The notes beneath the pieces were generated by a model. That model did not search any database. It saw only the letters and a program-made list of their open reading frames with translations, and was not told the origin of the DNA. From assembly GCA_963555755.3 (NCBI GenBank), contig OY820905.2, positions 2,368,001 to 2,432,000 on the forward strand: a stretch of 64,000 nt of DNA, given 5' to 3'. Positions 37,165-38,382 of the stretch are shown here, piece by piece (position 1 is the stretch's first letter; each line of letters starts with the position of its first letter). Both the position numbers and the translations under genes were made by a program. Origin of the DNA: Nitrospirales bacterium. Its GTDB lineage: Bacteria > Nitrospirota > Nitrospiria > Nitrospirales > UBA8639.

Positions 37165-38380
37165 CTTGTATAATGCAAGGAAGGGTTGTAGGCCAACTCA
37201 CCCGAGCTGCCTCTTGTCTGAAGAGGGCATAGCCAACGTAGGGAAAAGGCTGTACCCTCACGGTATTGTGAATCCTGGCATGATAGACCGTTTGCCCTAT
37301 GGGAATCAGCCCGTGACTCAGCGCAGGTCGTCATGCCCTTTCTCTGATGAACCCGAACGGTTGCCTGGGACACCAAGCCCGTATCAACAAGGTTGGGAGA
37401 CAGAGCGATGAAATCAAAATCCTCAGAATTGTTTATCGGTATCGACATTTGTAAAGCTCGATTAGACGTGGCAGACAATGCCAATTCGCTTCCATGGTCG
37501 GTAGCCAACAACGACGCCGGCATCGCCGCGCTGGTGGAGCGGCTCCACGTCCTTCACCCCACTCTCATCGTGATGGAAGCCACAGGGGGGCTGGAAACGC
37601 TTCTGTATGCGGCCTTAACCACCGCCGGGTTGCCGGCGGTCGTCATGAATCCCCGTCAGGTGCGGGACTTTGCCAAGGCCCTGGGCACCCTGGCCAAAAC
37701 CGATGCCCTGGACGCCCGAATCTTGGCTCGCTTCGGGGCGGCGATCCAGCCGGCGGTCCGGCCCATGAAAGACGCCACCACCCAGGAATTGACGGCCTTG
37801 GTGACACGGCGACGGCAGTTGCTTGCCATGCAGACGGCGGAAAAAACCCGCCTCCAGCAAGCAGCCAAATGGATCCGCAAAGATATCAACGCTCATATCG
37901 CCTCCCTGGAAAAACGGCTCCAAACAATCGAAGGTCATATTGCCGAGATTATTAAACAGACCCCCGGCTGGAAAGAGAAAGATTCGCTCCTTCGAAGTGT
38001 GCCGGGGGTGGGCAACGTCTTGTCAATGAATCTCCTCAGTAGCCTGACCGAACTCGGGACGCTCAACCGAAGAGAAATCGCCACGCTGGTGGGCGTTGCC
38101 CCCTTAAACCGCGACAGCGGAAACGTGCGCGGCAACCGAAGGGTCTGGGGAGGCCGGGCCCAAGTCCGCGCCGCCCTCTACATGGCGGCCCTGTCCGCAT
38201 CACGATTTAATCCGGTCATCAAAACATTTTATCAACGCCTGATTGCACAAGGGAAAAAACCCAAAGTGGCCCTCACCGCCTGTATGCGAAAACTTCTGGT
38301 CATTCTGAATACGATGGTCAAAACCCAAACAGCATGGAACCCAAATCAATATTCAACCCTTGACTTTAATCACGGTTGCT
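37165..38380 (+). mobile_element. IS110-family element 1 (IS621-like, CT core)
   Basis: CATGCC-CT-[element]-CT-GAGTC; empty sites at 39701 and 10957. Confidence 0.93.
37180..37406 (+). ncRNA. Predicted bridge RNA of IS110 element 1
   Basis: Guides TGCCCT (37293), GACTCAG (37315), ACGGTTGC (37357), ACAAG (37387) match target and donor; ends approximate. Confidence 0.85.
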
Positions 38381-38382
38381 GA
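37408..38382 (+). CDS. IS110 family DEDD recombinase, apparently intact
   Basis: [38 protein letters not shown]. Confidence 0.95.

Follow-up and report, generated by a model that had tools for sequence, protein, structure and literature searches.

An intact IS110 element of a Nitrospirales bacterium whose predicted bridge RNA likely directs it to a particular variant of a dispersed hairpin repeat

The element studied here lies in a stretch of 64,000 nucleotides (the window) from the genome of a Nitrospirales bacterium (Table 1). It is 1,216 bp long with both CT cores included, and its limits were set by empty-site comparison and by 11 full copies with differing flanks: when the element and one CT are removed in silico, the result is the site seen empty at 39701 and 10957. 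The CT at both ends and the two empty sites had been reported in the original prediction and are indeed present. The short core at both ends, the scarless empty site and the specific target place the element in the IS110 family, as does its recombinase, in which a RuvC-like PF01548 domain is combined with PF02371 in a protein within the range of 300-460 aa. The recombinase scores 210.6 bits against the NCBIfam model of IS110 RNA-guided transposases (NF033542, cut-off 140), and its only PDB matches are ISCro4 (9t56, E 1.1e-37, the best) and IS621 (8wt6, E 2.4e-35). In the alignment, D13, E57, D99, D102 and S237 fall on the residues named as catalytic in IS621 (DEDD and serine). The closest named protein records, at 82-90%, come from Nitrospirota genomes. 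A left end of 241 nt and the lack of any non-coding right end assign the element to the IS110 group (IS621-like) and not to IS1111, the former having, according to the available text of PMC11208160, a left end longer than the right one and the RNA in the left end.

Table 1. Features of the element and of its surroundings (positions in the window)
Feature	Position	Strand	Remarks
Host repeat, left end (inverted terminus) to insertion point	37142..37164	.	
Left target GCATGCC, host repeat DNA	37158..37164	+	same 7 bases in 12/12 copies having the left end
IS110 element	37165..38380	+	empty-site comparison and full copies
Left CT core	37165..37166	+	
Right donor TGTAT	37167..37171	+	complementary to right donor guide (direct reading)
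Stop-free frame across left end, continuing the recombinase frame in the circle	37167..37411	+	its TGA overlaps the start codon
-10 box TATAAT, predicted junction promoter	37169..37174	+	
Target-loop stem	37277..37337	+	fold z -3.35; 13/17 pairs of three helices changed on both sides, 55 sequences
Left target guide TTTGCCCT	37291..37298	+	6/8 identical to target, one wobble, one mismatch
Right target guide GACTCAG	37315..37321	+	7/7
Handshake bases CG, target loop	37322..37323	+	position by analogy with PMC11208158 (available text)
Predicted donor-binding loop	37352..37397	+	
Left donor guide ACGGTTGC	37357..37364	+	8/8
Right donor guide AT-CA-ACAAG	37383..37391	+	9 nt, discontinuous, 7/7 donor bases paired
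Handshake bases GT, donor loop	37392..37393	+	first base predicted to pair with target position 7
Ribosome-binding-like GGGAG	37395-37399	+	overlapped by 3' arm of predicted donor loop
IS110 recombinase, 324 aa	37408..38382	+	PF01548 and PF02371; D13, E57, D99, D102, S237; TGA = core T + target GA
-35 box TTGACT, inside coding sequence	38360..38365	+	
Left donor ACGGTTG	38372..38378	+	
Right CT core	38379..38380	+	
Right target GAGTC and rest of REP-like hairpin	38381..38396	+	GAGTC after core in 12/12 copies having the right end
Host repeat, remainder to right inverted terminus	38381..38501	.	
Empty target hairpin in another host-repeat copy	39701..39724	+	13-base site 39701-39713
Empty target hairpin in another host-repeat copy	10957..10980	+	13-base site 10957-10969

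The genome holds 13 matches to the element: 11 full copies (96.7-100%), one copy without the right end and one right-hand fragment. Junctions are identical among them, on the left in 12/12 and on the right in 12/12, and all full copies (11/11) keep the 324-aa frame together with the five catalytic residues. Two copies differ by one base, while their flanks differ at 41/80 positions on the left and 46/80 on the right (ungapped); near-identical copies with such clearly different flanks point to separate, recent insertions. Several peculiarities were seen along the way. The most diverged copy (92%; G000 C1:2149029-2150215) is the one that has lost its right end; it is followed by a transposase-like frame, possibly from an IS1380-like element. 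The copy at G000 C1:343015-344224 (-) has an intact recombinase but lacks 6 nt at the base of the donor loop, a deletion that reaches into the stem and by which its RNA is possibly impaired. An orphan stretch at G000 C1:2215827-2215907 corresponds to the first 82 bases of a related left end (77%); neither guide loops nor a recombinase follow it. PF02371 matches number 23 in the genome, the 13 copies of the element included, and two further, unrelated IS110-family recombinase genes with this domain lie in the window, at 47318-47569 (-) and 54552-54779 (+).

The left end can be laid out as two internal loops, one for the target and one for the donor, with two guides each. This IS621-type layout and the guide assignments, both put forward in the original prediction, hold and are backed by natural variation among relatives, and the motifs on which it was built, TGCCCT (37293), GACTCAG (37315), ACGGTTGC (37357) and ACAAG (37387), are all in place. 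Two of the guides had to be redrawn. TGCCCT is identical to the left target as claimed, but it is the core-proximal part of an 8-nt slot and not the whole guide; the two distal bases of the slot meet the target as one U.G wobble and one mismatch, so that the match is 6/8. Likewise, ACAAG is present but belongs to a longer right donor guide, 37383-37391, discontinuous in the pattern described for IS621 (PMC11208158, available text). The left target guide is one base shorter than in most relatives, and the handshake bases CG of the target loop are predicted to pair, after strand exchange, with donor positions 7 (C-G) and 6 (wobble). When the left end was shuffled 20,000 times by dinucleotides, the four guide matches recurred singly at 0.115, 0.015, 0.003 and 0.25, and all of them in order in 0/20,000. 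Compared with shuffles, folding was unremarkable for the whole left end (z -0.10), for the donor loop (z -0.45) and for the region 37181-37275 in the position of the 5' stem-loop, which does fold (z -0.38). Since only the target loop (z -3.35) folds better than shuffled sequence, the predicted structure rests on covariation and not on folding energy. Rfam gave nothing in the window at gathering scores. Another stretch considered as a guide was the 3' stem of the target loop at 37332-37339, of which 8 bases equal the left target; it was ruled out, relatives with other targets keeping the same stem.

For the study of covariation 187 loci were collected. Without 12 own copies and 3 duplicates, 172 of them remained, this element included. 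Full parsing succeeded for 79/172 and gave 48 unique target-guide pairs, this element among them; the other 93 (cut, interrupted or unparsed) were dropped. Over the 48 guide types, the left guide matches the left flank at 224/336 positions (permuted mean 118.4) and the right guide the right flank at 209/240 (permuted mean 106.0). These counts come with caveats: the core, the initial donor bases and the terminal AG of the right guide are prescribed by the parse motifs, relatives are not independent, and for the close clade the register was shifted by one base once the match had been seen. None of 20,000 permutations reached as high for either guide, and slid registers gave 59-123 matches (left) and 55-77 (right). 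The most distal position of the left guide matches in 9/48 types only and the next one in 20/48; given this weak distal matching, the imperfect left guide of our element is typical. In close relatives (86% identity) guide and flank change together: the right guide GGCTCAG goes with the flank GAGCC, and the left guide TTGTTCCT with flanks ending in TTC. Left donor guide and left donor are identical in 93/101 loci, with 8 variants. The first handshake base of each loop pairs crosswise with the other partner in 46/48 types; for the donor loop and target position 7, these include 3 A-T and 2 T-A changes. In an alignment of 55 sequences, 97.3% of the cells of the two-loop structure are paired and 17/26 pairs have changed on both sides, against 33-47% pairing in slid controls. 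All four guides match target or donor, and the left target, right target and left donor guides vary in step with their partners. Four of the Chloroflexota relatives (L064, L066, L074 and L093) share one site directly behind another transposase-like gene and apparently sit in the end of another insertion sequence, possibly an IS481-like one.

The target itself is a hairpin of about 24 bases that lies immediately within the inverted end of a larger repeat (usually 120-160 bases; at its left end in 60 cases, at its right end in 10) that we would call MITE-like and that is found in 172 copies by a strict pattern and at 319 loci by BLAST. Small inserts seem to accumulate at fixed positions in this larger repeat; the copy at 10940-11150 of the window has extra inserts consisting of a small palindrome and a second hairpin of the target's family. 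The original prediction had labelled the target a REP, and that label could not be kept. The targeted variant is preceded by AGCATG and has neither a GTAG nor a CGTC tag, and no link between the hairpin and a Y1 transposase was found, 16/17 Y1_Tnp matches having no such hairpin within 1 kb and the sole exception being a copy of the larger repeat. REPs of the GTAG and CGTC types are, in the available text of PMC3733652, characterized by a terminal tag and a neighbouring tyrosine transposase, and we therefore use the term REP-like only. A broken Y1 tyrosine transposase gene with an internal TGA was noticed at 10086-10379, some 600 bases from the empty site 10957.

Mapping of all genomic copies, as had been proposed, placed every full copy at the same guide-matched site, a 13-base sequence that also exists in 75 empty copies. 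The wider hairpin family comprises 197 empty members, of which 75 match the guides and 122 do not, and all 11 copies are in the guide-matched class (P 4e-5 if hairpins were picked at random). The claim of a recombinase aimed at the CCCTGAG..CGAAGGG hairpin was therefore too broad: it stands for the guide-matched variant and fails for the rest of the family. It should be added that for the full guide pair there is no perfect site anywhere in the genome. From all this we conclude, with a probability of roughly 0.9, that we are dealing with an intact IS110 element whose predicted bridge RNA, of the IS621 type, likely steers the recombinase to a single variant of a hairpin repeat that is dispersed in the genome. 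The sequence itself shows where the element ends, that its copies share one site, that the catalytic residues are present and that there are guide matches, which covary in relatives.

A somewhat unlikely alternative is that the guides are needed but insertion is gated a second time by structure, either that of the target hairpin or that of the larger palindromic repeat around it. Every occupied site is in a hairpin repeat, the left guide is imperfect, and a precedent is provided by ISPpu10 (10.64898/2026.03.19.712850, available text). Within this genome 80/81 of the empty guide-matched sites are hairpins, so sequence and hairpin are inseparable here. The relatives have 119 distinct right flanks; 31 of these, from Nitrospirota and Chloroflexota, lead on into a hairpin of this family, and the CT is placed alike. 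But the other 88 lack this hairpin by the pattern used, the gate of ISPpu10 pairs with the left target, which is a different geometry, and one of our copies is without most of the larger repeat on its right. The hairpin alone, at any rate, is insufficient, as the 122 hairpins that the guides do not match harbour none of the 11 copies.

If the element behaves like IS621, on which the following scheme is modelled, it would excise as a circle whose joined ends form a strong promoter; the bridge RNA transcribed from it would pair with target and donor on either side of CT, strand exchange would insert the circle, and insertion would break up the junction promoter and, in this lineage, complete the stop codon of the recombinase. 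When the ends are joined in silico, TTGACT (38360) does come to lie 17 nt before TATAAT (37169), with matches of 5/6 and 6/6, while integrated copies offer no -35 candidate at 16-18 nt better than 3/6; a promoter scan of the plus strand of the integrated element returned nothing. The prediction of a promoter that exists only upon joining of the ends is thus borne out in silico. A small hairpin around the -10 box at the left junction (37163-37181) is listed as terminator-like on the minus strand. Such a junction promoter need not be the sole source of the RNA, as weak read-through of integrated IS621 suffices for its excision (PMC13626964, available text). According to the same source, a longer right target guide and a canonical donor pair raise insertion by IS621 and lower its excision. 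Here the right target guide pairs 7/7, and in the right donor guide an A takes the place of the non-canonical G of IS621; because the natural RNA carries both changes, circles are predicted to be rare.

It is very unlikely, in our view, that the element is a recently silenced relic, right in its anatomy but no longer moving. The circle junction was seen neither in the assembly nor in contigs of 8 of the 24 listed runs, which would suit a relic; however, contigs drop rare forms, and their silence is no evidence either way. Degradation is visible in the copy without its right end, the fragment and the copy whose 6-base deletion reaches the donor-loop stem. Against this stand the conservation of frame and catalytic residues in all full copies and the two copies one base apart. 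The term 'active' of the original prediction went beyond the evidence in that no circle junction was seen, and what speaks for it is indirect: 11 intact, closely similar copies, two of them nearly identical in different flanks. A joint skipping exactly the element was met with in three runs and might have passed for excision; it equals the empty site, of which 75 copies exist, and these account for it. In two RNA runs the element is covered evenly, bases of the left flank included, which is indistinguishable from DNA or read-through; their contigs did not point to a separate small RNA, which contigs would be unable to reveal in any case. The left-end contig of runs X1 and X8 extends into the flank of just one genomic copy; this might reflect a smaller number of copies, low depth or read-through from a single locus. 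Finally, the idea that one element landed in one repeat and was multiplied as cargo of the latter, so that the shared site would say little on targeting, agrees with the position of all copies in one repeat family and with the at least 70 similar flanking bases that several of them share, but is largely refuted by the divergent flanks of the copies one base apart, by flanks that stem from different sub-variants of the larger repeat and by guides that track other targets in relatives.

The stop codon deserves separate discussion. That it is finished by target DNA had been predicted and proved correct: of the TGA at 38380-38382, the T is core and GA is target. Among 136 loci with a right junction, the stop is at a TGA inside the -35 box in 79, at core T plus target GA in 17, elsewhere inside the element in 39 and further out in one. 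A quick tree built from 91 proteins requires 3 changes to explain the target-made stop, and well-supported branches force at least 2 of these. In the circle, joined in silico, the frame would run 81 codons further and give 405 aa (403 in one copy). Over its first 235 bases this read-through frame is open in 7/7 close sequences, the other two frames holding 2-6 stops, and in 6/7 it ends at the start codon; a crude, post-hoc model gives a chance of 0.04-0.05 for the frame to stay open. It is closed in three other loci with a target-made stop (L038, L135 and L112), and in 74 elements with an internal stop, where left ends are shorter (median 172), the three left-end frames are open in 22, 8 and 22. 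Selection on the frame was sought in synonymous changes, which showed no clear excess (28 vs 22-28 expected, P 0.08-0.56), nor was there a clear excess of right guides specifying a stop (5/5 target-stop types vs 24/44 others). One could imagine that the guide RNA also determines how the recombinase gene ends: the 324-aa protein would result from on-target insertion alone, where GA follows CT, while the circle would make the 405-aa form by reading through the bridge-RNA region, and the arrangement would act as a switch between the two states and as a penalty for off-target insertion. We consider this quite unlikely; the read-through frame is more likely incidental, an interesting side feature. 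No description of a target-made stop codon in IS110 was found in the literature searched, most subscription papers and the ISfinder notes lying outside it; it does not appear in the available text of PMC11208160 with supplements, 10.1101/2024.04.26.591405, 10.64898/2026.03.19.712850, 10.1101/2025.05.14.653916, PMC3205602 or 10.64898/2026.08.14.744561.

The element is thus largely ordinary for IS110, with the small twist that its landing site completes the stop codon. The founding case of the family was that of IS110 elements whose bridge RNAs are directed to REP repeats (PMC11208160), and our element resembles E. coli IS621, as far as the available texts describe it (PMC11208160, PMC11208158, PMC13626964; 8wt6), in its DEDD and serine recombinase, CT cores, long left end, predicted junction promoter, two internal loops with four guides, discontinuous right donor guide, crosswise handshake and a repeat as target. 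It differs in its distant protein, in its other guides and target, in the length of its left end, in the three guide features noted above (a right target guide naturally pairing 7/7, a fully canonical right donor guide and a left target guide that falls one base short of that in most relatives) and in lacking a non-coding right end, as the coding sequence runs into the core. ISCro4, or IS622, is of the same family and layout and is the best PDB match, but it is 88% identical to IS621 and was tested in cells (10.1101/2025.05.14.653916, available text), whereas our element is known from sequence alone. ISPpu10 of Pseudomonas putida similarly has all its insertions in copies of one repeat, a strict right guide and a left guide tolerant of distal mismatches; unlike here, where the hairpin spans core and right target, its stem-loop pairs with the left target from upstream (10.64898/2026.03.19.712850, available text). 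Unnamed orthologues with the same left donor, core, right donor and donor-loop 10-mer occur at least 64 times in Supplementary file 4 of PMC11208160. The right end of our element was not found among the rows listed there, and this very element may be included in those supplements.

What is gained is one more readable and probably working bridge recombinase, from a distant branch. In a published screen of orthologues 18/72 gave a detectable product (10.1101/2025.05.14.653916, available text); coming from such a branch, and with a natural RNA that has two features improving insertion by IS621, the present element would be a fair candidate for screens of this kind. The arrangement is nested, an element in a hairpin in a larger repeat, and the same hairpin family is used by relatives in another phylum. 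A practical consequence of the borrowed stop codon is that the gene, if cloned from the element alone, has no stop. And if the target-made stop should check targeting, or the circle make a longer protein, this would be a new layer of control for the IS110 family.
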